Shown piece after piece: positions 759-63,066 of a stretch of DNA of 64,000 bases. Source of the DNA: an uncultured bacterium. Its GTDB lineage: Bacteria; Bacteroidota; Bacteroidia; Bacteroidales; CAIXTV01. Both the position numbers and the translations under genes were made by a program. Position 1 is the first letter of the stretch, and the number at the start of each line of letters is the position of its first letter. Under the pieces are notes generated by a model. It had not been told where the DNA came from. It made no database searches and was given only the letters and a program-made list of their open reading frames with translations. Where the stretch lies: positions 3,315 to 67,314 of the forward strand of contig CAIXTV010000130.1 of the NCBI GenBank assembly GCA_903922465.1, written 5' to 3'.

Positions 759-1427
759 TTAGAATTGATAAGAGAAAGTATTTTTACCTTTTAAAGCATT
801 ATTAATAATGCTATTACCGATGGCAGTTTTGGCAATACCACCATCGGCAATCTCAGGCTTGGCTTTTCGGGTTTTAAAGACACTTGCTGTACCTATGCCA
901 ACATTGCCTTCGCGTGAAAGATAATTTGAAGAATTTACCCAGCGTGACGGACCAACGATGCGCATACGCTCATAAGCATACTCATTATTATTCAAAAAAG
1001 GAAATGGTGGAGTATGAAATGTCATATCTCTGGTAGACGATTGAATGGAAAAATTATAATGATCGTCGCCAACAATATTTCCGAAGTTGCATATTTTCCC
1101 TATTTCTGCAGGATTTGGACCATTAGGCTGCCCACCTGTCCATAATCGCCATGAGTTTTGTACATTTGAAGGTCCATCGGTACGGAATAATTCACCGGGT
1201 GTAAAAAAAGTTGATGTAGGTAGAAGATTTGTATTTACATGTAATGCTGATAGAGGTGAATTTGGTGCTGTGAAATTTCCTATCCCAATAGAATTTTCTG
1301 AAGCAGGTAATAAGCTATACCAAAAATTTCCTGCTGAATTTTGGATGCTCCACTGAGCAAATAAAACTTGTGTCTGAAGGATAATTGCAATTAATACAAT
1401 ACACCCTATAATAAATTTGTTTTTCAT
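759..1427 (-). CDS. B-family secreted protein, copy B1 (222 aa). Signal peptide, IGIGNFT..LSALHVN motif, FRTDGPSNVQNSWRLWTGG core, ERMRIVGP..GNVGIGT C-terminal motif. No T9SS tail.
   Basis: ATG-started ORF 12 nt downstream of the A1 stop-to-start chain. It has three paralogs in the window. The motifs resemble the G-x-V-G-I-G-T / L-H-V heads of Bacteroidota tail-fibre-like surface proteins, but that is an inference and not a family assignment. Confidence 0.7.
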   Translation of the reverse strand: MKNKFIIGCIVLIAIILQTQVLFAQWSIQNSAGNFWYSLLPASENSIGIGNFTAPNSPLSALHVNTNLLPTSTFFTPGELFRTDGPSNVQNSWRLWTGGQPNGPNPAEIGKICNFGNIVGDDHYNFSIQSSTRDMTFHTPPFPFLNNNEYAYERMRIVGPSRWVNSSNYLSREGNVGIGTASVFKTRKAKPEIADGGIAKTAIGNSIINNALKGKNTFSYQF

Positions 1428-1455
1428 GAGATTATATTTTTTTTATGATTGAATG

Positions 1456-2337
1456 TTATTTAAATACTATTATTTTTTTTGTAATATATTTTCTGTTTGT
1501 TAAATAAATATTGATTGCATAGATACCTTCTTTAAATTCGGAAAAATCAATATTAATTTGATTTGATGATATGTGTTTAACTTCTGATATATTTAATGCT
1601 CCTGTAATATTAAATATCTGTATATCTGATATAATATATTTTTTTGAGATAATAGAAACAAATCTATTAGTTGGATTAGGGAACATAGATATAGTATTAT
1701 CAAGATCAAAAAAATTATAGATTTTTGAAGATGTTATTTTTTCAAGAAATAAATTATCAACATTTGCTCCAGTAGGTAGCCCAAATTTTATAGCTTGAAT
1801 TTTTATTTCTGAGCAAGATGTTGAAGCTATAAATATAGTATCATAGCATTCCCATTGAGTTGAAGAAATGAGTGGTGAAACTATTGTATCATTTTCAAAA
1901 ATAAAAGCAATAAGTGCTGGCGAAGAAAGTAACCCATTAAATGTCTGACGGTTTAAGCAATATCTTAAATGATATAATGAATCTTTTTCAAGAGGATTTA
2001 TTAATATAGCTTTTGCTGATTCTGTATAATTAGGGTTTCCTGTTCCACCAGATGCAAAATCAATATATGCTTTTCCTGATTGAGCAGTGTCGTTATCCCA
2101 ATTGCAAGTTGGTATGTCACCTTCAACCATTCTATCAGGAGTAGCATCAACAACAAACCAAAAATCAGGTCCATATACAATAGTTGTTGGTGAGCAGGTT
2201 GTGTCCCATACACCAATACTCCAACCGCCAGAGGAACTATCTGGTCCCAATTCAAAATCCCCGTTAGGTATAAGATTCTGAGAAAAAACACGAGTTATAA
2301 GTATTGTTATGCAAATTGAAAGTATTATTCTTTTCAT
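1456..2337 (-). CDS. A-family protein A1 (293 aa): signal peptide, CBM-like jelly-roll domain, type A T9SS C-terminal sorting domain.
   Basis: N-terminus MKRIILSICITILITRVFSQNLIPNGDFELGPDSSSGGW. The C-terminal ~80 aa (FPNPTNRFVSI...GIYAINIYLTNRKYITKKIIVFK) are typical of a Por secretion tail. Confidence 0.75.
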   Translation of the reverse strand: MKRIILSICITILITRVFSQNLIPNGDFELGPDSSSGGWSIGVWDTTCSPTTIVYGPDFWFVVDATPDRMVEGDIPTCNWDNDTAQSGKAYIDFASGGTGNPNYTESAKAILINPLEKDSLYHLRYCLNRQTFNGLLSSPALIAFIFENDTIVSPLISSTQWECYDTIFIASTSCSEIKIQAIKFGLPTGANVDNLFLEKITSSKIYNFFDLDNTISMFPNPTNRFVSIISKKYIISDIQIFNITGALNISEVKHISSNQINIDFSEFKEGIYAINIYLTNRKYITKKIIVFK

Positions 2338-2349
2338 GATATTTTATAG

Positions 2350-3012
2350 TTAGAATTTATTAGAGAAATAATTTTTGTCGATTCCAGCATTAAGAATAAT
2401 GCCCTTGCCGATAGTGGTTACAACAATGCCACTATCGGCAATCGCCGGCTTGGCTTTTCGGGTTTTAAAGACACTAATTGTGCCTATGCCAACATTACCC
2501 TCGCGTGAAATATAATTTGAAGAGTTTACCCAGCGTTGTGGTCCAACAATGCGCATTCGTTCTTTTGCAATTACCGTATAAGGCATTAAAGGCATTGTAT
2601 GAAAAGTCATATCACGAGTAGATGCTTGTATGGAAAAATTTAAAGTATCCTCAGGATGAACTGAATTAGCACCATAGCAGAAAATCATACCTTTTTCACT
2701 TGGGGTAGATACGTCTGTTTGACCTCCTGTCCAAAGACGCCAGGAGTTTAATACATTTGAAGGTCCATCGGTGCGGAAGACTTCACCAATGTTAAATATT
2801 GATGAATTAGGTATAAGATTTGAATTAACATGTAGAGCTGAAAGAGGTGATGAAGTAAAATTACCAATACCTATAGTTGTTACAGTAGAATTTGTTATAC
2901 CACAAACATTACTGCTAAGTATTGGTTGATTAAATTGACCATAACTTGAATTAATGGCTGTGCAAATTGCAACAATAGTCACAATAATTGCTATTTTAAA
3001 ATCTGATTTCAT
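2350..3012 (-). CDS. B-family secreted protein B2 (220 aa), the most diverged copy.
   Basis: Shares IGIGNFT..LSALHVN, FRTDGPSNVLNSWRLWTGGQ, NFSIQASTRDMTFHT and ERMRIVGPQRWVNSSNYISREGNVGIGT with B1 and B3. Confidence 0.7.
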   Translation of the reverse strand: MKSDFKIAIIVTIVAICTAINSSYGQFNQPILSSNVCGITNSTVTTIGIGNFTSSPLSALHVNSNLIPNSSIFNIGEVFRTDGPSNVLNSWRLWTGGQTDVSTPSEKGMIFCYGANSVHPEDTLNFSIQASTRDMTFHTMPLMPYTVIAKERMRIVGPQRWVNSSNYISREGNVGIGTISVFKTRKAKPAIADSGIVVTTIGKGIILNAGIDKNYFSNKF

Positions 3013-3016
3013 AATT

Positions 3017-3856
3017 TTATTTTATTATAAAAAGTTTTTGTTTATACGTTTTTTTGTTTTTTGATATAATGATTAAATAAATTCCAGATGACAGATATGA
3101 TATATCAATATTTTCATCCGAAGAAAGAATATGTTTTTCAAGTACAATTTTCCCAAATATATTAAGGATTTGCAGATAAGAATTTTCACCATTAATATTT
3201 CTAATAGTAATGTTATCTTTTGCGGGATTAGGATATATGTTGATATATTTCGAAAATTCAAAATAATTTAACCCATCCCATGAAATTTTTTCAAGTTTTA
3301 TATTATCAATATTTGCACCCGATTGACCAAATTTGTTATTATAAATTGTAATTTCCAAAGAATTATTCGAAGCAATAAAAATAGTGTCTGCATACCTCCA
3401 TATAGTATCATTAATTAATGGTGAATACAATGTGTCATTTACATTTGAAAATTTAAAACATAAACGAGATGGCTGATTTGAATTGCCTCTGAATGTTTGT
3501 AAAGAATATAAATAACTAAGTTTATAAACAGAATCCTTTATTAATGGAGAAGTCAAAGTCGTTTTGCCTGCATCAAAATTTACAAAATCAATATAAGCCT
3601 TTCCTGATGATGCCATATGATTATCCCAACATGGTACAATGTTACCAACTAATCTATCAGGAGTACCAGATACAACGCTCCAAAAATCTGGACCTAAAAC
3701 AGTTCCAATCATTATACATGTAATATCAACACCATTAGTCCATCCTGCAGACGTACTATCTGGTCCTAATTCAAAATCACCATTAGGAATTAAGTTCTGT
3801 GCAATAATTGGGGATATAAGTAATATTATGCAAATTAAAAGTATTATTTTTTTCAT
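3017..3856 (-). CDS. A-family protein A2 (279 aa), CBM-like domain plus T9SS type A CTD.
   Basis: QNLIPNGDFELGPDSTSAGW, GPDFWSVVSGTPDRLV, and C-terminal YPNPAKDNITI...GIYLIIISKNKKTYKQKLFIIK. Confidence 0.75.
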   Translation of the reverse strand: MKKIILLICIILLISPIIAQNLIPNGDFELGPDSTSAGWTNGVDITCIMIGTVLGPDFWSVVSGTPDRLVGNIVPCWDNHMASSGKAYIDFVNFDAGKTTLTSPLIKDSVYKLSYLYSLQTFRGNSNQPSRLCFKFSNVNDTLYSPLINDTIWRYADTIFIASNNSLEITIYNNKFGQSGANIDNIKLEKISWDGLNYFEFSKYINIYPNPAKDNITIRNINGENSYLQILNIFGKIVLEKHILSSDENIDISYLSSGIYLIIISKNKKTYKQKLFIIK

Positions 3857-3871
3857 GATTTAAAGTTAGAA

Positions 3872-4531
3872 TTAATAAAAGAAATAATTTTTGCCTTTTA
3901 AAGCATTATTAATAATGCTATTACCGATGGCAGTATTGGCAATACCACCATCGGCAATCTCAGGCTTGGCTTTTCGGGTTTTAAAGACACTTGCTGTACC
4001 TATGCCAACATTGCCTTCGCGTGAAAAATAATTTGAAGAATTTACCCAACGTGACGGACCAACGATGCGCATACGCTCATAAGCATACTCATTATTATTC
4101 AAAAAAGGATAGGGTGGAGTATGAAATGTCATATCTCTGGTAGACGATTGAATGGAAAAATTATAATGATCGTCGCCAACAATATTTCCGAAGTTGCATA
4201 TTTTCCCTATTTCTGCAGGATTTGGACCATTAGGCTGCCCACCTGTCCATAACCGCCAGGAGTTTTGTACATTTGAAGGCCCATCTGTGCGGATTAGTTG
4301 ACCAGGAGGAAAATTAAATGCTGTAGGTAAAATATTAGCATTAACATGCAAAGCTGCTTGTAATGCTGTTGAAAATGGACCAATTCCAATAGCATGAACA
4401 GTTGGTGTATTGGAAGTAATTAAAACATTATCGCCAGACAAATTAGTATAATTCCATTGTGCTATAACGAGATTATATTGCAGGGTAATTATTGCAATAA
4501 TAATTAATCCCCTAATAAATGATTTTTTCAT
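3872..4531 (-). CDS. B-family secreted protein B3 (219 aa).
   Basis: The core and C-terminal two thirds are nearly identical to B1 at nucleotide level. A CAA to TAA change removes the last two codons relative to B1. Confidence 0.7.
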   Translation of the reverse strand: MKKSFIRGLIIIAIITLQYNLVIAQWNYTNLSGDNVLITSNTPTVHAIGIGPFSTALQAALHVNANILPTAFNFPPGQLIRTDGPSNVQNSWRLWTGGQPNGPNPAEIGKICNFGNIVGDDHYNFSIQSSTRDMTFHTPPYPFLNNNEYAYERMRIVGPSRWVNSSNYFSREGNVGIGTASVFKTRKAKPEIADGGIANTAIGNSIINNALKGKNYFFY

Positions 4532-4535
4532 ATTA

Positions 4536-5423
4536 TTAAATGTTTTTGTTTAAAATAATTTTTTTTGTAAATATTGAATTTTTTGAATAAATTGAAATAT
4601 AGTATATTCCTGAATTTTGATTAACCATTGGTATTTCTGTAATTTCTTTTATCATAATAGTGTGAAAAATAACCTGACCAAGCGAATTGAAGATAATAAT
4701 TGTATGTTTTAAATTGTCATTTATTGTAACAGAAAGTATATTATTGTCTGGATTTAAGATTATTATGAAAGAAATACAATTAAATGAATTTTCTTTTATT
4801 GAAGTACTTGTATCTTCCTGTAGAGAAATATCATCAATATAAATTGGAAGTGGACTTTGATTATTCCCATGAAATTTAAATTCCGTTGAATTAGCTTGTG
4901 CTGTGAAAATTGTATCATATTTCCTCCAATCTCCATATCCAGTATAAGTAATTAATGGGGAATTAAAAGTATTTCCACCATTATTAAAAGTAAATATAAT
5001 TCCTGTTTGAGGTGAAAATCCACCTTGTTGCATCCAATAAGCAAACCATAAAGAATCTAAGCAAACAAAATATTCAAGTTTATATTTATGTCCTGCAATT
5101 ATAGAATTAATTAATGTTGTATATGCTCCATCATTTCCATTAAATTCAATATGTGATGTCCCCGAATGAGAAATAATATTGTCATAGCAATTAAAAAAAG
5201 GAGAACCATATACAAATCTGTCCGATTCACCTTCAGCTGTCCAATAATCACATCCGACCACAATAGGATTTACATTAATAACACAATCATAGCTTAATAT
5301 ATACAAAAATGTATTAGTAGAAGTATCTATTCCCTGCTCAAAATCACCATTAGGGATTAAATTCTGAGCAAAAACAGGAGTTAAAAGCATTGATAGGCAG
5401 AATAAGAGTATTAATTTTTTCAT
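4536..5423 (-). CDS. A-family protein A3 (295 aa), diverged CBM-like domain plus T9SS type A CTD.
   Basis: QNLIPNGDFEQG is retained, the signal-peptide DNA is nearly identical to A0, and the C-terminus GIYYISIYSKNSIFTKKIILNKNI is CTD-like. Confidence 0.7.
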   Translation of the reverse strand: MKKLILLFCLSMLLTPVFAQNLIPNGDFEQGIDTSTNTFLYILSYDCVINVNPIVVGCDYWTAEGESDRFVYGSPFFNCYDNIISHSGTSHIEFNGNDGAYTTLINSIIAGHKYKLEYFVCLDSLWFAYWMQQGGFSPQTGIIFTFNNGGNTFNSPLITYTGYGDWRKYDTIFTAQANSTEFKFHGNNQSPLPIYIDDISLQEDTSTSIKENSFNCISFIIILNPDNNILSVTINDNLKHTIIIFNSLGQVIFHTIMIKEITEIPMVNQNSGIYYISIYSKNSIFTKKIILNKNI

Positions 5424-16708: not shown

Positions 16709-16890
16709 GGAAGAACTCGCCATTCCTAAATTCAGAATGGCGAGTTGTTCCAGAAGAAGTGGGCATTCCTCGTTCAGAATGGCGAGTTGTTCCAGAAGAA
16801 GTGGGCAGTCTGGATTCAGAATGGCGAGTTGTTCTGCTAGAAGTGGGCAGTTTGGATTCAGAATGGCGACTTCTCGGAGAAGAACTCGCC
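16709..16890. repeat. 42-bp tandem repeat, about 3.8 copies, bounded by hairpins.
   Basis: Units start at 16731, 16773, 16815 and 16857 (ttcagaatggcgagttgttccagaagaagtgggca...). 16709-16725 is the inverse complement of the unit core, giving a 17-bp stem with one mismatch. Confidence 0.9.
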
Positions 16891-17217
16891 AAAATCAGCA
16901 AAATCATCCCAGTTTTAGAAGATGATTTCCTCGTTTTACAAACGATATGTCGAAGTGTTTTACCCCCTTGCTGTGATTATTTTTTCCTACACCTTATATT
17001 TATATAGCACATCCATCATCCAAAAAAAAATTCCATCCTTGTTCTGGATGAAATTTTTCTTTTCCTTACATTTTAATCTCTATATCAATAATATCAAAAT
17101 ATTTTGCAGTTGAAGTAGGCTAATGAGGCCTTACAACTTAATGTAATGGGAAAACATCAGCATTTTTTCACTGTAGAAGTCCCACATCCTGATGCAAATC
17201 GGCTTTTTGGTTAGGCC

Positions 17218-27032: not shown

Positions 27033-28820
27033 ATGGAAAACATTCGAAATTTTTGTATTATTGCTCACATCGATCATGGCAAAAGCACTCTTGCCGATCG
27101 ATTGCTTGAATACACCGGAACAATAAACGAAAGAGAACAACAAGATCAGGTGCTCGACGACATGGACCTGGAACGTGAAAGAGGTATCACAATTAAGAGT
27201 CATGCCATTCAGATGGAATATGTCTATAAAGGCAAACCCTATGTTCTCAACCTCATCGACACCCCTGGGCATGTGGATTTTTCCTATGAAGTTTCACGTT
27301 CTATTGCGGCTTGTGAAGGCGCCTTGTTAGTAATTGATGCAACTCAGGGCATTCAAGCTCAAACTATTTCAAATTTATATTTGGCTGTCGAAAATAATCT
27401 GGAGATTATCCCAGTATTAAATAAAATGGACATGGAAAATGCCATGCCCGAAGAAGTAAAAGATCAGATTGTTGATTTGTTAGGCTGCAAAAGAGAAGAT
27501 ATAATTGAAGCCAGCGCTAAATCTGGCTTAGGGATTCCCGTTATTATCGATCAAATAATCAATAAAATACCTGCACCCTCGGGTGATCCAAATGCACCCT
27601 TACAGGCTTTAATTTTTGATTCAGTTTTTAATTCATTTCGTGGCATAATTGCCTACTTTAGAATTTTTAACGGACAAATTCACAAAAACGATTTGGTGAA
27701 ATTTGTTTCTACAGGAAAAGAATATGGGGCTGATGAGATAGGTGTTTTAAAATTGAAGCCCGAAGCAAAAGATGTGCTTTATGCGGGTGATGTAGGCTAT
27801 ATTATTTCAGGGATTAAAGTTTCAAAAGAAGTTAAAGTTGGTGATACTGTGACCCATGTAAGTAATCCTTGCTCCAATTTTATTGAAGGTTTCGAAAATG
27901 TAAAACCTATGTTGTTTGCAGGGATATATCCTGTTAGTGCTGAAGATTATGAAGAACTCCGAAATTCAATTGAAAAACTACAATTGAACGACGCTTCATT
28001 GACTTTTGAACCTGAATCTTCCATTGCTTTAGGTTTTGGGTTTAGATGTGGGTTTTTGGGCCTGCTTCACATGGATATTATTCAAGAAAGGCTTGATAGA
28101 GAGTTTGACATGGATGTAATTACCACAATTCCAAACGTTTCATATAAAGTAATTACTACAAAAGGCGAAAATATCGATGTTCATAATCCACTGAACTTGC
28201 CAAACCCAAGTAAGATTGATCATATTGAAGAACCATATATCATAGCTCAAATCATTACCAAATCGGAGTACGTTGGCCCCATAATGAAACTTTGTATTGA
28301 TAAAAGAGGGATACTCAAAAATCAGGTTTATTTAACTACTGATAGAATTGAAATCACCTTCGAACTTCCTTTAGGTGAAATTGTTTTCGATTTTTATGAT
28401 AAACTTAAAAGCATTTCGAGAGGTTATGCGTCTTTCGATTATTTTCAGTCGAGTTATCAACCCGCCAAATTAGTTCGATTAGATATTTTGCTGAATGGAG
28501 AGCCCGTTGATGCACTTTCTTGCTTGATTCATGCCGATAATTCCTATGATTTTGGCAGAAAAATCTGTTCCAAATTAAGAGAACTCATTCCTCGACATCA
28601 ATTTGACATTGCAATTCAAGCGGCTATTGGTGCAAAAGTAATTGCCCGCGAAACTATTAAAGCCGTCAGGAAAGATGTTACTTCGAAATGCTATGGAGGT
28701 GATATTACGCGTAAGCGTAAATTATTAGAGAAACAGAAAAAAGGAAAGAAACGTATGCGTCAGATAGGCAATGTTGAAGTACCACAGTCAGCGTTTCTAG
28801 CAGTTTTGAAGATCGATTAA
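27033..28820 (+). CDS. lepA: Translation elongation factor 4 (LepA).
   Basis: [37 protein letters not shown], and the C-terminal LepA_C-like region ..[24 protein letters not shown]. The track start at 27024 is TTG. Confidence 0.95.
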
Positions 28821-28894
28821 AGCATTGATTCTCTTTAATTAAATTCATTTTTTATAGAGGAAATTTTAAATTTGAGACTTAAGATTTAAAGCAA

Positions 28895-29270
28895 AAATCC
28901 TGGGATATTTAGAAAAAATCTTGGGATTTTAAGTTGAAATCCTAGAATATTTTGCAGAAATCCTAGAATATTTTGCAGAAATCCTAGAATATTTTGCAGA
29001 AATCCTGGAATTTTAAGTTGAAATCCTAGAATATTTTGCAGAAATCCTGGAATTTTAAGTTGAAATCCTAGAATATTTTGCAGAAATCCTAGAATATTTT
29101 GAAAAAATCCTAGGATTTTAAATTGAAATAGTGGGATTTCAACTTAAAATAGTGGGATTAAAATTTGAAATTTCAGGATTTTAACTTGAAATAGCGGTAT
29201 AAAAAATTTTTATAGCCGGATTTCAAATCGAAATAGTGGCATAAAAAATCAAAATAACGAGATTTAAAAT
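28895..29270. repeat. Phased 21-bp tandem array organised as a long imperfect palindrome.
   Basis: aaatcc recurs at exact 21-nt steps from 28895 to 29105 (11 units). ggattt recurs at about 21-nt steps from 29113 onward (about 8 inverted units). The centre is the perfect palindrome aaatcctaggattt (29105-29118). Confidence 0.9.
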
Positions 29271-29430
29271 CAGGATTCGCTATAAATATTGATCCATACG
29301 AGAAAAACGCCTTCATTTACATCTTCAATAATCCTTCATTCATTAGCCAAAACTGAGGGCTAACTCTTAGTAATTTCAAACTTAGGTCTTATTTTCTTAT
29401 CCAGAACATCAGTAATTGATATTTTCTTTT

Positions 29431-29438
29431 TACCTTTG
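29431..29438 (+). promoter_or_regulatory. -7 box TACCTTTG for the C25 peptidase gene.
   Basis: 19 nt separate the box from the ATG at 29458. This supports that ATG over the track start at 29416. Confidence 0.45.
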
Positions 29439-29457: not shown

Positions 29458-32400
29458 ATGAAAAAAATATTACTAATATCTGTTATTACTTTCTTTTTAT
29501 TTTCAATCATTACTGTTTCTTTTGCCGGGGAAATTCATTTCAATAAATCCGCTAAACAGGAATTATTAATAATAGAAAACAGTTCTTCGAAACTAATCGT
29601 TAAGAACACATTAAACACATTGGATTATACCCTTGTGAATACTTCAAAAGGGTCACATATCCGCCTTTCGGTTCCCGGATATGCAGCTTCTGAAAAAGTA
29701 GGCATGCCACTATTACCTGTTAACAAATCACTGATAGAAATACCGCTAGGCGCAACCATTAGCTATAAAATCACTTCATTTACGACTGAAGAAATTAAGT
29801 TGGCTGATTTCGGCATCGTTCAACCTTTGTTTCCGGCTCAAGCTCCCATTTCCAAAAGCTTTACGGGTGAAGTTGATTTAGTAAAGAATTCGCAAGCCTA
29901 TCAAAGTCAGGCTTATTTAAATTCAGATTTGGTGAAGATTGACAAAATAGGCATTATGCGAGGGCTCAATCTTGCCCGCTTGAATATTTGTCCGTTTCAG
30001 TACAATCCCGCGAAAAACTCCTTATTAATTTATCACAATATGGTTGTTGAAATTAGTTTTTCAGGGGCTGATGAAACAGCAACTATCGAACTCAAGAAGA
30101 AAAACAATTCGCCTTATTTCGATGCAGTGCAATCCACAGTGATTAATTATAAACCTCTTTTGCAAAAAGATTTGATTACCAAAGCCACAGTCAAATATGT
30201 TATTGTTTCCAACCCTATGTTTCAGGCAACACTTCAGCCTTTTATTCAGTGGAAAACCAAAAAGGGGTTCAATGTAATTGAGGCTTACACAAATAATCCA
30301 CTTGTCGGCAGCACAACCACTTCAATAAAAGCCTATTTGCAAGGGCTATATAATGCAGGAACTCCTGCCGACCCTGCTCCTTCTTTTGTTTTGTTTGTTG
30401 GCGACATTGCTCAGCTTCCTTCCTTTGATGGCACAACAGGAACTCATCCAACTGACCTTTACTATTGCGAATACACAGGCGATTTCCTACCCGAAGTGTA
30501 TTATGGAAGATTTTCTGCTGAAAATGTAGATCAATTGGCTCCACAACTCAGCAAAACCCTAGAATATGAACAATACCTCATGCCTGATCCTTCTTTTCTG
30601 AATCAAGTGGTGATGATAGCAGGGGTCGACGCTGGAATGGCTCCTACTTATGGTAATGGTCAAATTAATTATGGCACTCAAAATTATTTCAATTCCACTT
30701 TTGGACTTACTTCACACACCTACTTATACCCTGCATCTGAAACTTCAGCAGCTCAAATCATACAAGATGTGAACAATGGTTGTGGTTTTGCAAATTACAC
30801 TGCACACGGCTCTCCTTCCGGTTGGTCTAGCCCTGGTTTCTCGGTAAGTGATGTTAGTGGACTTACCAACAGCCATAAATATCCATTAATGGTAGGCAAT
30901 TGTTGTTTAACAAATAAATTTGATGAAACCGAATGCTTTGGCGAAGCCCTATTAAGGGCAACCAACAAAGGAGCCATTGGCTATATAGGTGGTTCGAACA
31001 GCACCTATTGGGATGAAGATTATTTTTGGGGAGTTGGAGTTAAAGCCATAAGTGCTAACCCTTCCTACTTAGCTTCCGCATTAGGCTCTTACGACAGGAC
31101 TTTTCATTCGCATGGCGAAACTTATTCAAATTGGTTTGTAACCCAAGGTCAAATGGTGATTGCTGGTAATTTAGCCGTTACACAAGGTTCTGCCGGCAGC
31201 ATGAATTACTATTGGGAAATCTATCATTTAATGGGCGACCCTTCTCTAATGGTGTATTATTCGGTTCCTCCTACCCTAACCAATAGTTATGCTCCATTCA
31301 TTCCTCTTGCTGCAACAACCTTTTCTGTTACTACCGAACCATACGCATATGTTGCTGTATCAATGGGAGGCATTTTACACGGAGCTGATTTCGCTGATTC
31401 AACTGGGATATGCAATCTAAACATTCTTCCTTTTAATATTCCCGGCTCAGCCGATGTAGTGATGACAAAGCAAAATCGTCAGCCTTTTATAGGCACAGTA
31501 AATATTCAAACTCCAACAGGCCCTTATGTGGTTTATAAATCTCATATTCAAAATGACCCCACAGGCAACAACAACCACCTTGCCGATTTCAATGAAATCA
31601 TTTCTCTTGATGTTACCCTGAAAAATTATGGCATAAACGACACTCTTGTTTCTGCCATTTTATATACTGCTGATACCATGGTAAGCATTCTTGACAGTAC
31701 CCATGCATGGGGTTTCATTGCTCAAAACGATTCCCTTGCCAAGTCGAATGCATTTTCTTTTAAGGTTAAGAACTTCATTACCGATCAACACAATGTTGTT
31801 TTTAATATTAAAGTGACGGATAATTTAGGGAATATTTGGATATCCACATTAACAGTAAAACTGAATGCTCCAGCTTTGGCCGCAGGAAATATGATAATTG
31901 CTGATAATGGAAATCACAACGGCAGGCTCGACCCAGGTGAAACGGCCACAATAACAATCACCAACCATAATTACGGTCATTCAATAGCAACAAACACAAC
32001 TGGGACCTTGTCAACCCAAAGTTCATTGATTACTATAACTAATCCAACGTCCCCAGTCGGGAATCTTCCAATTGGGGGAGATGGCAGTGCAACATTTAAT
32101 GTCATTGTTAGCAGTTCTGCTACATTAGGAACTTATCTTCCTTTGAACTACAACGTTGAATCTACCCCTTACCAAAACAGTAAAATATTTAGCACTATGA
32201 TTGGTTTGGTTTCTGAAGATTGGGAAACAGGAAGTTTTACAAAATTCAGCTGGACCCAAGTGAATACTTCTCTTTGGTCAATATCAAATATTCTTCCTTA
32301 CGAGGGTGTTTATTGTGCACAATCGGGCGCTATTTCAGACAACGAATCTAATGCCATACAAATATCAATGAATGTGTTAGCCGATGATAGTATTTCATTT

Positions 32401-32913
32401 TACAAAAAGGTTTCTTCCGAACTAAATTACGATTTCCTTGAATTTTATATTGATAATGTAAAAATTGATGAATGGTCAGGAGTCCAATCATGGAGTCGTG
32501 TTGTGTATCCTGTAATTTTCGGCAACCATACTTTTAGGTGGACTTATAGCAAAGACATCTCTTCAATTGGAGGAGAAGATAAAGCTTGGGTGGATTATAT
32601 CTTATTTCCTCCTGCTATTATTTCAAATGGGCTAAATGAAACTTCCAATGAGGATAATCAATTGATTATTTATCCTAACCCTGCAAAGGATGCTGTTCAA
32701 ATTTCATTTAACATGAATCAGTCTGCAAAAGTAGAAGCATCAATATATAATTCATTAGGGAAAAAACTTATTGTTATTCAAACATACAAAGAATTAGGGG
32801 TAGGAAATCAAATCATTAATATGTCTACCGAAAGCTTAACCTCAGGTATTTATTTTGTAAAACTAAACATTGGGAATAATCAGAAAACCATAAAGTTGAT
32901 TATTAACAAGTAA
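29458..32913 (+). CDS. Peptidase C25 (gingipain-like cysteine protease) with a T9SS type A CTD.
   Basis: YVIVSNPMFQATLQPFIQWKTKKGF; catalytic-type ANYTAHGSPSGW and PLMVGNCCLTNKFDE; C-terminal IYPNPAKDAVQISF...GIYFVKLNIGNNQKTIKLIINK. Confidence 0.85.
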   Translation: MKKILLISVITFFLFSIITVSFAGEIHFNKSAKQELLIIENSSSKLIVKNTLNTLDYTLVNTSKGSHIRLSVPGYAASEKVGMPLLPVNKSLIEIPLGATISYKITSFTTEEIKLADFGIVQPLFPAQAPISKSFTGEVDLVKNSQAYQSQAYLNSDLVKIDKIGIMRGLNLARLNICPFQYNPAKNSLLIYHNMVVEISFSGADETATIELKKKNNSPYFDAVQSTVINYKPLLQKDLITKATVKYVIVSNPMFQATLQPFIQWKTKKGFNVIEAYTNNPLVGSTTTSIKAYLQGLYNAGTPADPAPSFVLFVGDIAQLPSFDGTTGTHPTDLYYCEYTGDFLPEVYYGRFSAENVDQLAPQLSKTLEYEQYLMPDPSFLNQVVMIAGVDAGMAPTYGNGQINYGTQNYFNSTFGLTSHTYLYPASETSAAQIIQDVNNGCGFANYTAHGSPSGWSSPGFSVSDVSGLTNSHKYPLMVGNCCLTNKFDETECFGEALLRATNKGAIGYIGGSNSTYWDEDYFWGVGVKAISANPSYLASALGSYDRTFHSHGETYSNWFVTQGQMVIAGNLAVTQGSAGSMNYYWEIYHLMGDPSLMVYYSVPPTLTNSYAPFIPLAATTFSVTTEPYAYVAVSMGGILHGADFADSTGICNLNILPFNIPGSADVVMTKQNRQPFIGTVNIQTPTGPYVVYKSHIQNDPTGNNNHLADFNEIISLDVTLKNYGINDTLVSAILYTADTMVSILDSTHAWGFIAQNDSLAKSNAFSFKVKNFITDQHNVVFNIKVTDNLGNIWISTLTVKLNAPALAAGNMIIADNGNHNGRLDPGETATITITNHNYGHSIATNTTGTLSTQSSLITITNPTSPVGNLPIGGDGSATFNVIVSSSATLGTYLPLNYNVESTPYQNSKIFSTMIGLVSEDWETGSFTKFSWTQVNTSLWSISNILPYEGVYCAQSGAISDNESNAIQISMNVLADDSISFYKKVSSELNYDFLEFYIDNVKIDEWSGVQSWSRVVYPVIFGNHTFRWTYSKDISSIGGEDKAWVDYILFPPAIISNGLNETSNEDNQLIIYPNPAKDAVQISFNMNQSAKVEASIYNSLGKKLIVIQTYKELGVGNQIINMSTESLTSGIYFVKLNIGNNQKTIKLIINK

Positions 32914-41204: not shown

Positions 41205-41525
41205 ATGGAAATCCTTAACCCTAGCCCTTTAGAAGCAAAAATAATTGAAAAACTTAAAGATATATTTGATCCCGAGATTCCTGTAAACATTTTTGATCTG
41301 GGTCTGATTTATGGTATACGCGTCAATCCAGAAAATGAAGTCCATATAATAATGACGCTAACTTCGCCCAACTGCCCTGTTGCAGAATCGTTGCCTAACG
41401 ATGTTCATAATGAGATATTATCAATTGAAGAAGTGAAAAACGTTAACATCGAACTTTCTTTCGATCCTCCTTGGGATAAAGATATGCTTTCTGAAGAAGC
41501 GATGCTTGAATTGGGTTTATTATAA
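41205..41525 (+). CDS. DUF59 / SufT-like Fe-S cluster assembly protein.
   Basis: DPEIPVNIFDLGLIY and MTLTSPNCPVAESL. Confidence 0.8.
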   Translation: MEILNPSPLEAKIIEKLKDIFDPEIPVNIFDLGLIYGIRVNPENEVHIIMTLTSPNCPVAESLPNDVHNEILSIEEVKNVNIELSFDPPWDKDMLSEEAMLELGLL

Positions 41526-41538
41526 GCCCACAAATGAT

Positions 41539-41850
41539 GGTTTGAAACGTCATTGCGAGGAACTAACCTGCCTAACAGGCAGAGAAGGACGAAGCAATCT
41601 CAAACCTAAAAAGCTGTTTAGCTGTTTAGTAGTTTAGGCTTTTAGGAAGAAAAAGTCCCAAGTCCCAAGTCCCAAATTTCAAATTCCAAGACCCAAGGGG
41701 TGAAATCGCTTACTTGAAACTTCAATGCAAGGGGAAATGGCTTGTTTGAAACGTCATTGCGAGGAACTAACCTGCCTAACAGGCAGAGAAGGACGAAGCA
41801 ATCTCAAGCCTAAAAAGCTGTGTAGTAGTTTAGGCTTTTAAGAAGAAGGA
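41539..41850 (+). repeat. About 1.7 tandem copies of a ~190-bp REP-like composite unit (left arm of a foldback structure).
   Basis: gtttgaaacgtcattgcgaggaactaacctgcctaacaggcagagaaggacgaagcaatctcaa occurs twice (at 41540 and 41744), with cccaagtcccaagtcccaaatttcaaattccaag between the copies. Confidence 0.88.
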
Positions 41851-42131
41851 CCAAAAATCAGATTTTTAATTGAAAATAGGGGGATTGGGTAAGAGTTATT
41901 AGGTTAATGGGTGGATTTGAGGTGAAGGATATGGTGATTTCAGGTGCAAAATGGGCTAGACTGATTTCCGATTATATTTATCTTTCTAATGTTTTGGCAC
42001 TGTTTCTGTAGTTGAAAATTTTTCAATACATCACTTCAATATTTTGTTTTTGAATAGCTATTGTTTACCCACAGCATTTTGCCCTATTAGGTTTTTGATG
42101 AAATTTTGCTTTCAAATGGGAAAATAAACAT

Positions 42132-42420
42132 GTTTGTCGTTATGACGAGCAGCATCATAGTGAAAAATAAGTTTGTTTGTCACAGTGATTGGTTGAATCA
42201 TAGCATAAAATAAGTTTCTTTATCGTCATGAACCGGAGCGTCATAGTGTAAAAGGAGTTTCTTTATCCTTATGAACCGGAGAGTCATCCTATAAAAGGAG
42301 TTTCTTTATCGTCATGAACCGGAAATTCATAGTATAAAAAGAGTTTCTTTATCGTTATGAACCGAAGAGTCATAGTATAAAAGGAGTTTCTTTATCGTTA
42401 TGAACCGGAGCGTCATACTT
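42132..42420. repeat. 43-bp tandem repeat, about 6.8 copies.
   Basis: Units start at 42132, 42171, 42214, 42257, 42300, 42343 and 42386 (gtttctttatcgtcatgaaccggagcgtcatagtgtaaaagga). Confidence 0.88.
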
Positions 42421-42987
42421 AATTACGTAGGGATTCAGAGGACAACCACCATTTTTTTCCTCCTCCTGAGCGGCGAATTTTTACGATGAGGATAATTTGC
42501 AATTATCATCATTATTAGATGCATTCTGTTACAAAACAACACGATTTAAACCTTAATAGAAAAACCACTAAAACACCTAACTCCAACCTTATTAGCATTT
42601 CGAGAGGAGAGAAGGTAATAAGCTTAGGGTTAATAAGGCCTTGGCTTTTCTATTAAGGTTTGGAAGGGGAAGAAGACTTTTATTCAATTGACAATTGAGA
42701 ATGGAAAATTGACAATGATTTTTTACCGATATATCATCCCTGACGGGATTTGGAGAATTAAAAATGGGTTGTATGGTAACTCTTAAATGGTAAATGGATT
42801 GATACAAAGTAATAATTTATGGGTTTGTGTTTATTGATATTATATCAGGCTTGTGAGAGAAAGATGTAATTAGCGAATTTATTTTATCATATTTTTGCAA
42901 GAGTAAATCAGCAATTAAATCATAAAAATCAGCGTTTCTTGAATCAGCGTCATCAGCGTTCTATTTTTCCAACTAATTAAATTTGCA

Positions 42988-43710
42988 AACAGCTTTTTGG
43001 CTTTGAGATTGCTTCGTGCTATGACGTTTCAAATGGGCGGTTTCGTCTTGCAATACCGTTTCAAATAAACGGCTTCCCCTCTTGGGACTTGGAATTTGAA
43101 ATTTGGGGCTTGGGTCTTTTCTTCCTAAAAGTCTAAACTACTAAATGTCTAAACAGCTTTTTTGTTTTGAGATTGCTTCGTCCTTCCCTGCCTGTTAGGC
43201 AGTGAAGTTCCTCGCTATGACGTTTCAAATGGGTGGTTTCGTCTTGCAATACCGTTTCAAATAAACTGCTTCCCCCCTTGGGACTTGGAATTTGAAATTT
43301 GGGGCTTGGGTCTTTTCTTCCTAAATGTCTAAACAGCTAAACAGCTTTTTGGGTTGGAGATTGCTTAGTCCTTCCCTGCCTGTTAGGCAGTGAAGTTCCT
43401 CGCTATGACGTTTCAAATGGGCGGTTTCGTCTTGCAATACCGTTTCAAATAAACGGCTTCCCCCCTTGGGACTTGGAATTTGAAATTTGGGGCTTGGCTC
43501 TTTTCTACCTAAATGTCTAAACTACTAAATGTCTAAACAGCTTTTTGGCTTTGAAATTGCTTCGTCCTTCCCTGCCTGTTAGGCAGTGAAGTTCCTCGCT
43601 ATGACGTTTCAAATGGGCGGTTTCGTCTTGCAATACCGTTTCAAATAAACTAATCCCCCCCTTGGGACTTGGAATTTGAAATTTGGGGCTTGGGTCTTTT
43701 CTTCCTAAAA
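42988..43710 (-). repeat. About 3.8 tandem copies of the same ~190-bp unit, inverted relative to 41539..41850 (right arm).
   Basis: The anchor ga(g/a)attgcttcgt occurs at 43005, 43169, 43357 and 43553. The reverse complement aligns with the left-arm unit at roughly 85-90 percent identity by eye. The last unit contains the stop codon of the 43705..45510 gene. Confidence 0.88.
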
Positions 43711-55107: not shown

Positions 55108-55296
55108 GGCGGACGAAAAAATCAAGAGTACGGAAAATGAATTCAAGAGTGGGAATAAAGAAATCAAACTGGCGGACGAAAAAATCAAACTGGCGGACGA
55201 AAAAATCAAATTGATGGATGTTGAAATCAAAAGAGCGGAAGGCAAAAAATACTAGGCGGACGATGAAATCAAGAGGGCGGATGATGAAATCAAGTG
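55108..55296. repeat. Phased 21-bp tandem array, 9 units.
   Basis: The ggcggacg-type unit heads lie at 55108, 55171, 55192, 55213, 55234, 55255 and 55276, all multiples of 21 apart. The unit is ggcggacgaaaaaatcaaact. Confidence 0.88.
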
Positions 55297-56768: not shown

Positions 56769-56907
56769 TTAGGCATTTAGACTTTTAGGACAGTCGTTTT
56801 CTACCTAAACTCCTTATATTATACAGTTTATTAATTGCATTTTCAATAGTATTATGTTTAATTTCTTCATTCTAAAAGACTAAAAGTCTACAAGACTAAA
56901 TGCCTAA
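56769..56907. repeat. Inverted repeat in the spacer between the two coiled-coil paralogs.
   Basis: ttaggcatttag+acttttag (56769-56788) matches the reverse complement of ctaaaagtctacaagactaaatgcctaa (about 56880-56907), apart from an 8-nt insertion in the right arm. Confidence 0.7.
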
Positions 56908-56911
56908 AATC

Positions 56912-62205: not shown

Positions 62206-62490
62206 TTTAGAAGTGTATAATTTGTTTGAAGCAAAAATGGAAAATTATGGAAGCAGCAAACGCAAGATATTATGGAAATTTCGATAAAATGAGGCTTTAA
62301 TTTTGATCTAAAACTTCAAATCAATCAAAAATAGGGTCGGAAAACATCTAAAAATAGTGTTTTTTTCATTTGTTTTTGGTTTTGGAAATAATTTTGTTGA
62401 AAAACATGAAAATTTGAAAATCGCTGAAACTCTCATTCTCATTGGGTTTGAAAACATGAAGTGATTTTGAAAACCATTTTTATATGATAA

Positions 62491-62700
62491 ACAAAAAAGA
62501 TAAACATATAAAAATCGATTTTTACAGCAAAACCTAAAATGATAAACCTATAAAAATTCATTTTCATAGAAAAACCTAAAATGAAAACCATATAAAAATT
62601 CATTTTCATAGCAAAACCTAAAATGATAAACCTATAAAAATCGATTTTCATAGGAAAACCTAAAAAGATAAACATATAAAAATGGATTTTTATATGAAAG
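62491..62700. repeat. 42-bp tandem array, 5 units.
   Basis: Units start at 62491, 62533, 62575, 62617 and 62659. Each contains an aaaaat(c/t/g)(g/c)attttt pseudo-palindrome. Confidence 0.88.
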
Positions 62701-63066
62701 TCATTTTGTATATTGATATAAAAATATTTTTTCAGGTATTTTCCATTAATACTCTTCTAGCGAAAATGAATTTTCATATTAAAAGTCAAAATATTGACGC
62801 ATCAAAAATCGATTTTTATATCAGTTTACTTAAAGAAAATTCTCTATATATCAATTTTCAATATAAAAATAATAATGAAAATCATCTGAAAATGTTCCTT
62901 TCAAACCCCATTCTTGATAACAATAAATGAACAGAGTAATGGCAATTCAAATGCACATCAATTATACAAAAATTTACTTCTATTGATTAAAAACCTGAAA
63001 AAGAAAACTTCAAAAAACTTAAATTTTCAGCCGACAAAATTAAGGTGGATGAATTTTCGGGGAGTT

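Follow-up and report, generated by a model that had tools for sequence, protein, structure and literature searches.

The spacer between lepA and a gene for a C25-family cysteine peptidase is occupied by a tandem array of 21-nt units, which turns round at a short palindrome. The question raised by this locus is whether the array belongs to the control region of the peptidase gene, ahead of whose promoter it lies, or whether it is an element of a different kind that is found there incidentally. The window, i.e. the whole stretch of DNA that was analysed (64 kb), is ordinary chromosome and rich in genes for cargo proteins of the type IX secretion system (T9SS). The features of the locus are as follows.

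27033 to 28820, plus strand: lepA (EF4), the upstream neighbour, assigned by the Pfam domains GTP_EFTU and LepA_C
28895 to 29125, plus strand: left arm of the array, 11 well-conserved units, defined by the register print, the lag-21 identity and the phased AAATCC positions
29104 to 29119, no strand: perfect 16-nt palindrome AAAATCCTAGGATTTT, which contains AAATCCTAGGATTT at 29105-29118 and forms the head-to-head junction of the arms
29126 to 29272, minus strand: right arm of the array, 7 decayed units with the 21-nt phase kept, defined by the strand of the hexamer and by the lag-21 and lag-42 identity
29431 to 29438, plus strand: TACCTTTG, Bacteroidota-type -7 promoter box (TAnnTTTG) of the peptidase gene, found by regex scan and three-species alignment
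29458 to 32913, plus strand: C25-family cysteine peptidase with propeptide and type IX secretion C-terminal sorting domain (Pfam Peptidase_C25, Propeptide_C25, Por_Secre_tail)

Layout, strand switch and folding of the array

When the region is printed in register, it resolves into 18 units which share a single exact 21-nt register without any indel and span 28895-29272. A phased array of 21-mers at 28895-29270 is thereby confirmed, and so are the eleven units which had been described at exact 21-nt spacing from 28895 to 29105. The units of the left arm start with AAATC(C/T)T at 28895, 28916 and so on up to 29105. Each of them comprises the heptamer AAATCCT, a degenerate repeat of this heptamer in inverted orientation (AGAATAT or GGAATTT) and a 7-nt linker, and holds a quasi-palindrome of 14-16 nt. 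Subtype A, AAATCCTAGAATATTTTGCAG, is present in the left arm in five identical copies and subtype B, AAATCCTGGAATTTTAAGTTG, in two; the remaining units are A', B', one outer degenerate unit (x) and the dyad unit. The two subtypes of the original prediction therefore exist, but they do not strictly alternate, as the order of the left arm is x, B', A, A, A, B, A, B, A, A', dyad unit.

The lag-21 identity amounts to 0.725 for the whole array, 0.77 for the left arm and 0.65 for the right arm, and at the off-period lags 15-20 and 22-27 the identity over the whole array is at most 0.36. For the right arm none of 5000 shuffles matched the observed lag identity at any lag between 15 and 27. Its outer part (29189-29272) shows a higher-order period of 42 nt, with a lag-42 identity of 0.71 for the right arm. 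TRF reported periods of 21, 42 and 63 across 28891-29270. The exact A unit gave 6 matches at up to 3 mismatches (0.01 expected) and the 13-mer core 13 matches (0.61 expected). TRF, pattern searches and shuffle controls are concordant, and the repeat is non-random far beyond chance. A period of 21 bp corresponds to two helical turns, and the exact phasing supports the view that the units are exposed on the same face of the helix. A CRISPR array is ruled out: the units are contiguous and lack the unique spacers of about 26-72 nt typical of CRISPR arrays, the only variable part is a linker of 7-9 nt which is itself recurrent, and no cas domains were seen in the domain scan of the window.

The array was also predicted to flip at the palindrome at 29105-29118, and it does, though subtly. 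There are ten phased plus-strand copies of the hexamer AAATCC in the left arm, but not one in the right arm. The reverse complement GGATTT is located at 29113, 29134, 29176 and 29218, and copies with one mismatch are found at 29155 (GGATTA) and 29260 (AGATTT). The strand counts of the hexamer (left arm 10 plus and 1 minus, right arm 0 plus and 4 minus) differ with p ~0.004 in Fisher's exact test. Compared with B over the whole unit, the seven units of the right arm agree at 17, 13, 18, 12, 13, 11 and 14 of 21 positions as reverse complement and at 15, 15, 15, 12, 11, 12 and 12 of 21 as direct repeat, and the arm also keeps the direct register with AAAT at 29126, 29147 and so on. Because each unit is a quasi-palindrome, the right arm aligns nearly equally well both ways; the flip is decided by the best-conserved hexamer, which changes strand at the dyad. 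The perfect palindrome AAATCCT/AGGATTT itself needs no separate explanation, since head-to-head AAATCCT units yield such a junction automatically. Beyond it the inverted units decay outward as described before, and all seven degenerate units of the right arm are still in phase.

A perfect inverted match of 17 nt connects 28926-28942 with 29134-29150, and the 91-nt arm pair 29000-29090 and 29091-29181 is 70% complementary. The predicted single-strand fold is strong in comparison to shuffles (z = -7.3 as RNA, -6.5 as DNA). These results support the interpretation of the array as a foldback of tandem 21-mers.

Such a fold could act at the level of RNA. The array would then form a hairpin in transcripts reading through from lepA, which terminates transcription, protects the 3' end of the mRNA in the manner of REP/BIME elements or yields a small RNA. 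The array starts 75 nt downstream of the lepA stop codon, and the terminator scan predicted no intrinsic terminator in between (0 sites). Together with the RNA fold and with a related array (locus L014, see below) which likewise lies directly downstream of a co-oriented gene, this is what a 3'-end element would look like. However, a search against Rfam 15, both at the gathering threshold and with permissive settings, found no relevant family in the array; the Rfam matches in the window are confined to RNase P RNA and one tRNA, and the sub-threshold matches in the array are miRNA-like hairpins at chance level. The stems are AT-rich and not followed by a U-tract, and any tandem quasi-palindromic array folds far better than its own shuffles. 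A hairpin would moreover explain neither the strict 21-nt phasing nor the fact that conservation is limited to the heptamer. We consider a function at the RNA level improbable.

The array and the peptidase gene

The array is situated within the 638-nt spacer from lepA to the C25 peptidase gene. Its end is 159 nt away from the TACCTTTG box at 29431, in agreement with the distance of about 160 nt to the promoter box which had been noted originally. From this position it was proposed that the array is a row of operators or a curved upstream element which serves the peptidase gene.

Curvature was predicted with a wedge model with parameters after Bolshoy/Trifonov 1991, and all curvature figures are indicative only. 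By this model no 126-bp stretch of the 64-kb window is more curved than the left arm (lowest 0.2 percentile of predicted straightness), and its end-to-end distance is only 0.26 of the contour length over 231 bp. On the other hand, when random 21-mers of matching composition are repeated eight times, 18% of them reach or exceed this curvature. The right arm and the L014 array are predicted to be straight, and the other arrays with periods of 21 or 42 nt are not especially curved. Thus, of the intrinsically curved element in the original prediction, the curvature of the left arm stands as a model result, yet it is unexceptional for a 21-bp array. Curvature was for these reasons rejected as a distinguishing feature; according to the model it is a by-product of the period and generic to AT-rich tandem arrays of 21 bp.

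A promoter inside the units was rejected as well. The regex scan found no Bacteroidota -7 box (TAnnTTTG) inside the array units, and matches of the sigma-70 type are at the level of shuffles. Solitary copies of the palindrome are absent from the rest of the 64-kb window, which rules out, within the window, a regulon of solitary palindromic sites.

The orthologous peptidase loci are more informative. The closest homologues of the peptidase are 80% (P0002) and 72% (P0003) identical, and the former is encoded by the metagenome-assembled genome (MAG) 'Bacteroidota bacterium ELA062' (GCA_037144095), in the following called ELA062. Both relatives have kept the downstream synteny, with subunits of pyruvate:ferredoxin oxidoreductase and an aminotransferase, and in both the upstream gene differs from lepA. 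No 21-nt array was found upstream of the orthologous peptidase (loci L042 and L043) in the 1130 nt covered in ELA062 and in the 138-nt spacer of the 72% relative. Conservation across the three species is limited to about 45 nt adjoining the start codon, TACCTTTG among them, and the sequences further upstream are unalignable. The comparison shows that the array lies in a fast-evolving spacer at a synteny breakpoint and does not belong to the conserved control region of the peptidase gene; on the available evidence its position upstream of the peptidase is incidental.

The proposed link to the peptidase promoter was consequently not upheld: the two relatives retain the promoter and do without the array, an absence which speaks against a conserved gene-specific role. 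What remains in favour of a dedicated cis-regulatory array is the distance of 159 nt to the -7 box and the window-wide rank of the left arm in predicted curvature. Against it stand, besides the conserved core promoter in relatives lacking the array, the occurrence of the same repeat family beside unrelated genes (see below), a predicted curvature which any 21-bp tandem array might show, and units devoid of the -7 box. A gene-specific role is unsupported because the array is absent at the orthologous promoters, and we regard it as improbable, too.

We also asked whether the element could be an artefact of one assembly. An exact match of the LepA protein is encoded on eight contigs. An independent 17-kb ENA contig from another sample has the identical distance of 596 nt from lepA to the long peptidase ORF, and partial contigs from a number of independent lake metagenome assemblies show no difference over the length they cover. 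The organism is present in lake metagenomes such as ERZ1426731, ERZ1426675 and ERZ27313186. Most short-read contigs with an identical lepA or peptidase gene end in the array or close to it; in sample ERZ1426675 they do so at 29089 and 29314, on either side of the dyad and the right arm. Such breaks were rejected as proof of a multi-copy repeat, as a palindrome can by itself interrupt a de Bruijn assembly. The element is reproducible and not an artefact of one assembly, since the array is not confined to one assembly and the independent contig gives the same 596-nt spacing; the exact copy number of units is not guaranteed by short reads.

One contig deviates. L003 carries lepA followed by a left arm which is 3 units shorter, a slightly different dyad unit and different following units, and downstream of these an operon for Flavin_Reduct, DUF6913, DHDPS and M14 peptidase proteins. 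Either it was joined via a second array of high similarity, or a genuine rearrangement has taken place between two arrays; the short variant is probably a join to another locus. The contigs which carry the Flavin_Reduct gene end 72-100 nt upstream of it, short of any second array.

These data also bear on the idea of a contingency locus, in which slippage alters the number of units and thereby switches or tunes the neighbouring genes. Three identical A units in succession (63 nt) in perfect register would favour slippage, and the left arm of L003 is shorter by exactly 3 units. However, the spacing of 596 nt is identical in two independent assemblies, and L003 differs also in its tail and its downstream gene, which makes a join to some other array the likelier explanation. 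The length of the array at 55108 in the window is unchanged in 3 further samples. A copy-number-variable switch is accordingly very unlikely.

An origin from an integrated plasmid or phage, as iterons or as a centromere, is highly unlikely, and so is an assembly artefact. Plasmid iterons are 17-22 bp long, are phased at about 22 bp and may occur in both orientations, and short-read contigs do break at the array. But the flanking genes are housekeeping genes; no rep, par, integrase or transposase domains were found among the scanned ORFs of at least 100 aa in the 64-kb window; BLAST against 72,556 plasmids and 50,697 phages gave no match; and several independent assemblies contain the same sequence.

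A dispersed family of 21-bp arrays

One genome per species (GTDB) was scanned for two cores at 21-nt spacing with the pattern AAATCYTRGRAT-N9-AAATCYTRGRAT. The search of other genomes for the 21-mer which the original prediction had recommended was successful, as the scan returned three further contigs, L008, L014 and L015, all of them from ELA062. Each contains an array of at least 10 units in phase, built from AAATCCTRGRATTT and a 7-nt linker, and the linkers differ between the loci. The neighbouring genes are unrelated to those in the window and include mlaE with a response regulator as well as a LytTR-type two-component system. The scan for the core of the 21-mer gave no match from P. gingivalis.

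The central dyad recurs in these arrays. L015 contains a perfect palindrome of 28 nt, CTGGTAGAAATCCT/AGGATTTCTACCAG, and L014 one of 30 nt, AAAAATTGAAATCCT/AGGATTTCAATTTTT, and both are centred on AAATCCT/AGGATTT. In L014 the heptamer switches strand at the palindrome as it does in the window. Exactly one perfect 14-mer per array is present in the window, L003, L008, L014 and L015. A second locus in the species of the window itself is deduced from L003 only. With these loci the element is shown to be one member of a family of 21-bp minisatellites which is lineage-specific and dispersed over the intergenic DNA of an uncultured freshwater genus of the Bacteroidota. About five arrays of the family were examined, and those outside the window were found by a pattern which requires the core, so that the sample carries an ascertainment bias. 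In the literature on 21-bp phased intergenic repeats we found no description of a family of AAATCCT arrays.

The closest known analogue is BrickBuilt of P. gingivalis (and with it PgRS/MITE464). BrickBuilt is a 23-nt minisatellite which occupies 19 intergenic loci and is frequently flanked by peptidase or T9SS-cargo genes (Klein et al. 2015, Mobile DNA 6:18; PMC4596501). Its units have conserved and variable positions and occur in 1 to about 23 imperfect copies, and its status as a MITE rests on leader and tail flanks and on IS5-like terminal inverted repeats (TIRs) (PMC4596501). Both families belong to the same phylum and consist of tandem imperfect units of about 21-23 nt without spacers, in which conserved and variable positions can be told apart. 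Both are also dispersed over many strictly intergenic, lineage-restricted loci, for which the arrays on three contigs of ELA062 are the example here. They differ in the period (23 nt versus 21 nt, the BrickBuilt 23-mer being published only as a logo), and neither a quasi-palindromic unit nor a head-to-head dyad has been described for BrickBuilt. Furthermore, the leader and tail flanks and the IS5-like TIRs of BrickBuilt were not detected for the family of the window. A short-word all-versus-all BLAST of 8 flanks of 5 arrays, a small sample, revealed no shared leader or tail, TIRs or target-site duplications (all matches with E > 0.01). The array is for lack of the MITE leader, tail and TIRs not filed as a member of BrickBuilt.

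The family could nevertheless be a non-autonomous element of the BrickBuilt/PgRS type, i.e. a minisatellite inside a MITE which is moved by a transposase acting in trans and affects promoters or terminators only incidentally. The dispersed, intergenic and lineage-restricted copies as well as the precedent in P. gingivalis agree with such an origin, and so does the coincidence of arrays with contig joins and synteny breaks. Converging units would also be expected of a transposon with subterminal binding sites which has lost its interior. However, the flanks have none of the hallmarks named above, a transposase gene is absent from the window, and the locus-specific linkers in ELA062 fit local amplification better than copy-and-paste. 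On balance a MITE is unlikely.

REP/BIME elements of enterobacteria and pseudomonads consist of units of about 35 nt in alternating orientation with defined linkers, occur in hundreds of copies and are associated with RAYT transposases; they bind IHF and gyrase and stabilise upstream mRNA. They resemble the arrays described here in being short imperfect palindromes which form clusters in intergenic regions or 3'-UTRs and occur in both orientations. In contrast, the array in the window comprises long runs of the same orientation, is strictly phased at 21 bp and switches its orientation once.

Iteron arrays such as P1 incC/incA, F, RK2 oriV and the lambda origin have sites of 17-22 bp with a period of about 21-22 bp; they may occur in both orientations, and the lambda iterons possess an internal dyad symmetry. 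The description of the units as iteron-like holds for the geometry, with direct repeats phased at exactly 21 bp and sites on one face of the helix. It does not extend to the genetic context, which lacks replication and partition genes and similarity to plasmids or phages: the array has no nearby initiator gene, AT-rich unwinding element or DnaA boxes, its setting is chromosomal among housekeeping genes, and there are several arrays per genome.

Dispersed intergenic tandem repeats which are abundant in particular lineages are furthermore reported as STRR heptamers of cyanobacteria and TAACTGA repeats of Beggiatoaceae (PMC4679880). They share with the present family the character of 'naked' intergenic tandem repeats of unexplained function. 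Their units are 7 nt long, versus 21 nt here, and neither helical phasing nor a palindromic core is known for them.

Heptamer conservation and array periods

Within the units the heptamer and the linker differ in conservation. The mismatches to the consensus in the first seven positions (heptamer) and in positions 15-21 (linker) are given for five arrays; in L014 the conservation of the heptamer is weaker.

Left arm in the window: positions 1-7, 1 of 77; positions 15-21, 22 of 77
L015: positions 1-7, 6 of 70; positions 15-21, 24 of 70
L014: positions 1-7, 11 of 70; positions 15-21, 18 of 70
L010 (Verrucomicrobiae): positions 1-7, 2 of 70; positions 15-21, 22 of 70
L012 (Verrucomicrobiae): positions 1-7, 5 of 70; positions 15-21, 23 of 70

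In the window the variation is mostly between the two unit subtypes, which reduces it to few independent changes; all six differences between A and B are located outside of the heptamer, with a chance probability of ~0.09. The 14-nt core is identical in two species between which the rest of the intergenic DNA cannot be aligned. As the core is kept between species while the linkers vary between loci, something seems to read the heptamer. Judging from the sequences, this could be a DNA-binding protein or the machinery which amplifies the units.

We therefore propose the following course of events. Tandem amplification via slippage or unequal exchange would have built the array, whose edge units decayed as is usual in tandem repeats. 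A single foldback event, by inverted duplication or template switch at a quasi-palindromic unit, would then have produced the head-to-head arms. The product most likely is a row of recognition sites for a putative sequence-specific DNA-binding protein. Spaced at two helical turns and thus located on the same face of the helix, the bound proteins could cooperate in a bent nucleoprotein structure. Should the array influence the 3'-end formation of lepA or the peptidase promoter, this would be a secondary effect peculiar to this species. The reading as a row of binding sites is based on the preservation of the heptamer within arrays, between arrays and between species, which is not shared by linkers and flanks. 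Of the roles originally considered, an array of protein-binding sites is thereby the best functional guess, though no candidate protein was identified and the absence of solitary sites from the rest of the 64 kb counts against it. Altogether we lean, with slightly better than even confidence, towards a dispersed minisatellite which arose by tandem amplification and one foldback and whose heptamer is probably read by a protein once per two helical turns.

If the arrays are binding platforms, they would point to a chromosome-structuring or regulatory protein in an uncultured freshwater lineage of the Bacteroidota, and they would represent a natural case of operator-like sites which were amplified into helically phased arrays. 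They also have a practical side. The arrays coincide with contig breaks and changes of synteny and can create chimeric joins such as L003, and a location upstream of a gene is alone no ground to call such an array a gene-specific regulator.

AAATCCT-type arrays may not be limited to the Bacteroidota. A Verrucomicrobiae MAG encodes two 21-nt arrays of 10 units each with a AAATCCTRGGAY core and GC-rich linkers (L010 and L012 above), one of which is located 1.2 kb downstream of dnaA-dnaN. In a scan of viral contigs the real core was found at 4 loci (3 distinct), compared to 1 and 0 loci for two composition-matched permuted 12-mers. Several of the matches in genomes and metagenomes are plain duplications of 2 units and compatible with chance. 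With a search pattern that demands the core and with thin controls, these matches are only suggestive of a link across phyla, which is unproven. A more far-reaching reading would regard AAATCCT once per two helical turns as the site of a putative filament-building protein which is distributed beyond the genus, and the array periods as a chromatin-like organising principle and not as the outcome of neutral turnover of repeats. We consider this rather unlikely.

The lineage is unusually rich in intergenic tandem arrays, most of which have periods of about 21/22 or 42-44 nt and unrelated sequences. These arrays are located as follows.

Window, further arrays: 16730 (42 nt), 55108 (21 nt), 62470 (42 nt) and 42198 (43 nt)
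ELA062: L014 with three adjacent arrays (21, 42 and 42 nt), L042 (21/42 nt) and L048 (22/44 nt)

In about 209 kb of unrelated loci the periods of other arrays are scattered from 12 to 25. We know of no description of a lineage whose array periods are restricted to about two or four helical turns. The unrelated arrays of about 21/42 nt in this lineage fit a sequence-independent structural or purely mutational cause no worse than a specific binder.

Corresponding sites can carry different arrays, as is seen in the spacer upstream of the Flavin_Reduct gene. The species of the window has the tail of an AAATCC-type array at this site. ELA062 has a different array there, with a period of 22/44 nt and the perfect palindrome GGACTAATTAGTCC, and this 22/44 array counts against a specific binder. 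The arrays may have a sequence-independent structural role, and the two found here suggest a turnover of arrays at permissive sites.

Periods of the intergenic arrays

Among the intergenic arrays of the lineage with a period of at least 20 nt, about 10 of 11 have periods of 21-22, 42-44 or 63 nt. These were counted over the window and the whole loci L003 (a contig of the window's own species), L008, L014, L015, L042 and L048 (contigs of the related MAG ELA062), and arrays which had been selected by search were left out. In the comparison set, approximately 209 kb of unrelated loci, array periods are spread over 12 to 25. A preference for two helical turns may underlie the periods found in the lineage. 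In ELA062, three distinct tandem arrays with periods of 21, 42 and 42 abut within one intergenic region (L014 1783-2254). Besides the AAATCC-type array next to lepA, the following tandem arrays were identified in the window:

16709-16897, intergenic: 42-nt unit, 3.3 copies
55108-55293, within a spacer of 953 nt that lies upstream of a - strand nitroreductase gene: 21-nt unit GGCGGACGAAAAAATCAAACT, about 9 copies
62470-62694: 42/84-nt array, the units of which hold the palindromes AAAATCGATTTT / AAAATTCATTTT

Inverted partial copies (GAAGAACTCGCCATTC / GAATGGCGAGTTGTTC) flank the first of these at either end; it is a further array whose orientation switches at the edges. For the nitroreductase array the same length was obtained from three other samples, and contig L052 departs entirely from the window exactly at the outer edge of this array (window 55305). 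Several of the 126-bp segments predicted to be the most curved of the window lie around the third array (62245-62917).

Arrays and octamer runs at the flavin reductase gene

The spacer upstream of the flavin reductase gene (Flavin_Reduct) contains the tail of an AAATCC-type array in the window's species (L003), whereas in ELA062 it contains an array based on GGACTAATTAGTCC. Site and architecture are the same in both, while the sequence is different.

L048 4552-4781 (ELA062): array with a 22/44-nt period and, as its core, the perfect palindrome GGACTAATTAGTCC of 14 nt
L003 3229-3675: lepA and the left arm of the main array, 3 units shorter, running into an array tail that differs from the window's and into the Flavin_Reduct operon

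The junction in L003 arose either by chimeric assembly via a second array of nearly identical sequence or by genuine rearrangement between arrays.

The octamer CTAAA(A/C)NT forms runs at several places across the lineage:

Window: 56872-56909, 43125-43153 and 43509-43537
L048: 4890-4995
L014: 1238-1283
L042: 10968-11000

In ELA062 a run of 13 copies extends right up to the flavin reductase start codon, and as it ends there it may be a 5'-leader element.

Similar arrays in a Verrucomicrobiae MAG and a viral contig

Arrays in 21-nt phase were also identified on contigs from other sources:

L010 6694-6902 and L012 3420-3620 (Verrucomicrobiae MAG MFD01213.bin.1.241): one 10-unit, 21-nt array each
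L017 8607-8911 (37-kb IMG/VR contig): approximately 10 units of AAATCCTAGAATCTATAATAC

Both Verrucomicrobiae arrays comprise an AT-rich core, AAATCCTRGGAY, and GC-rich linkers. The one in L010 is 1.2 kb downstream of dnaA-dnaN, within a region of divergent promoters. The two arrays may be kin of the Bacteroidota family or the product of chance convergence with it. The viral contig L017 is very AT-rich, and the genes near its array carry SWIB and DUF5871 domains; a relationship of this array to the Bacteroidota family is unlikely.

Further repeats and a series of gene pairs in the window

Two other regions of the window were noted:

41525-43705, between convergent genes: 2.2-kb non-coding, repeat-dense stretch
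759-5423, - strand: three successive gene pairs

The non-coding stretch contains AAGTCCC (six copies), a 32-mer (two copies), a 43-mer (five copies, 42198-42417), a 196-mer (3.6 copies, 43018-43709) and runs of the octamer CTAAANNT. No Rfam match was found for 41525-43705 at the gathering threshold. In each gene pair the first protein has about 220 aa and no Pfam match, and the second, about 280-295 aa long, carries a T9SS sorting domain. The pairs look like a two-gene cassette triplicated in tandem.
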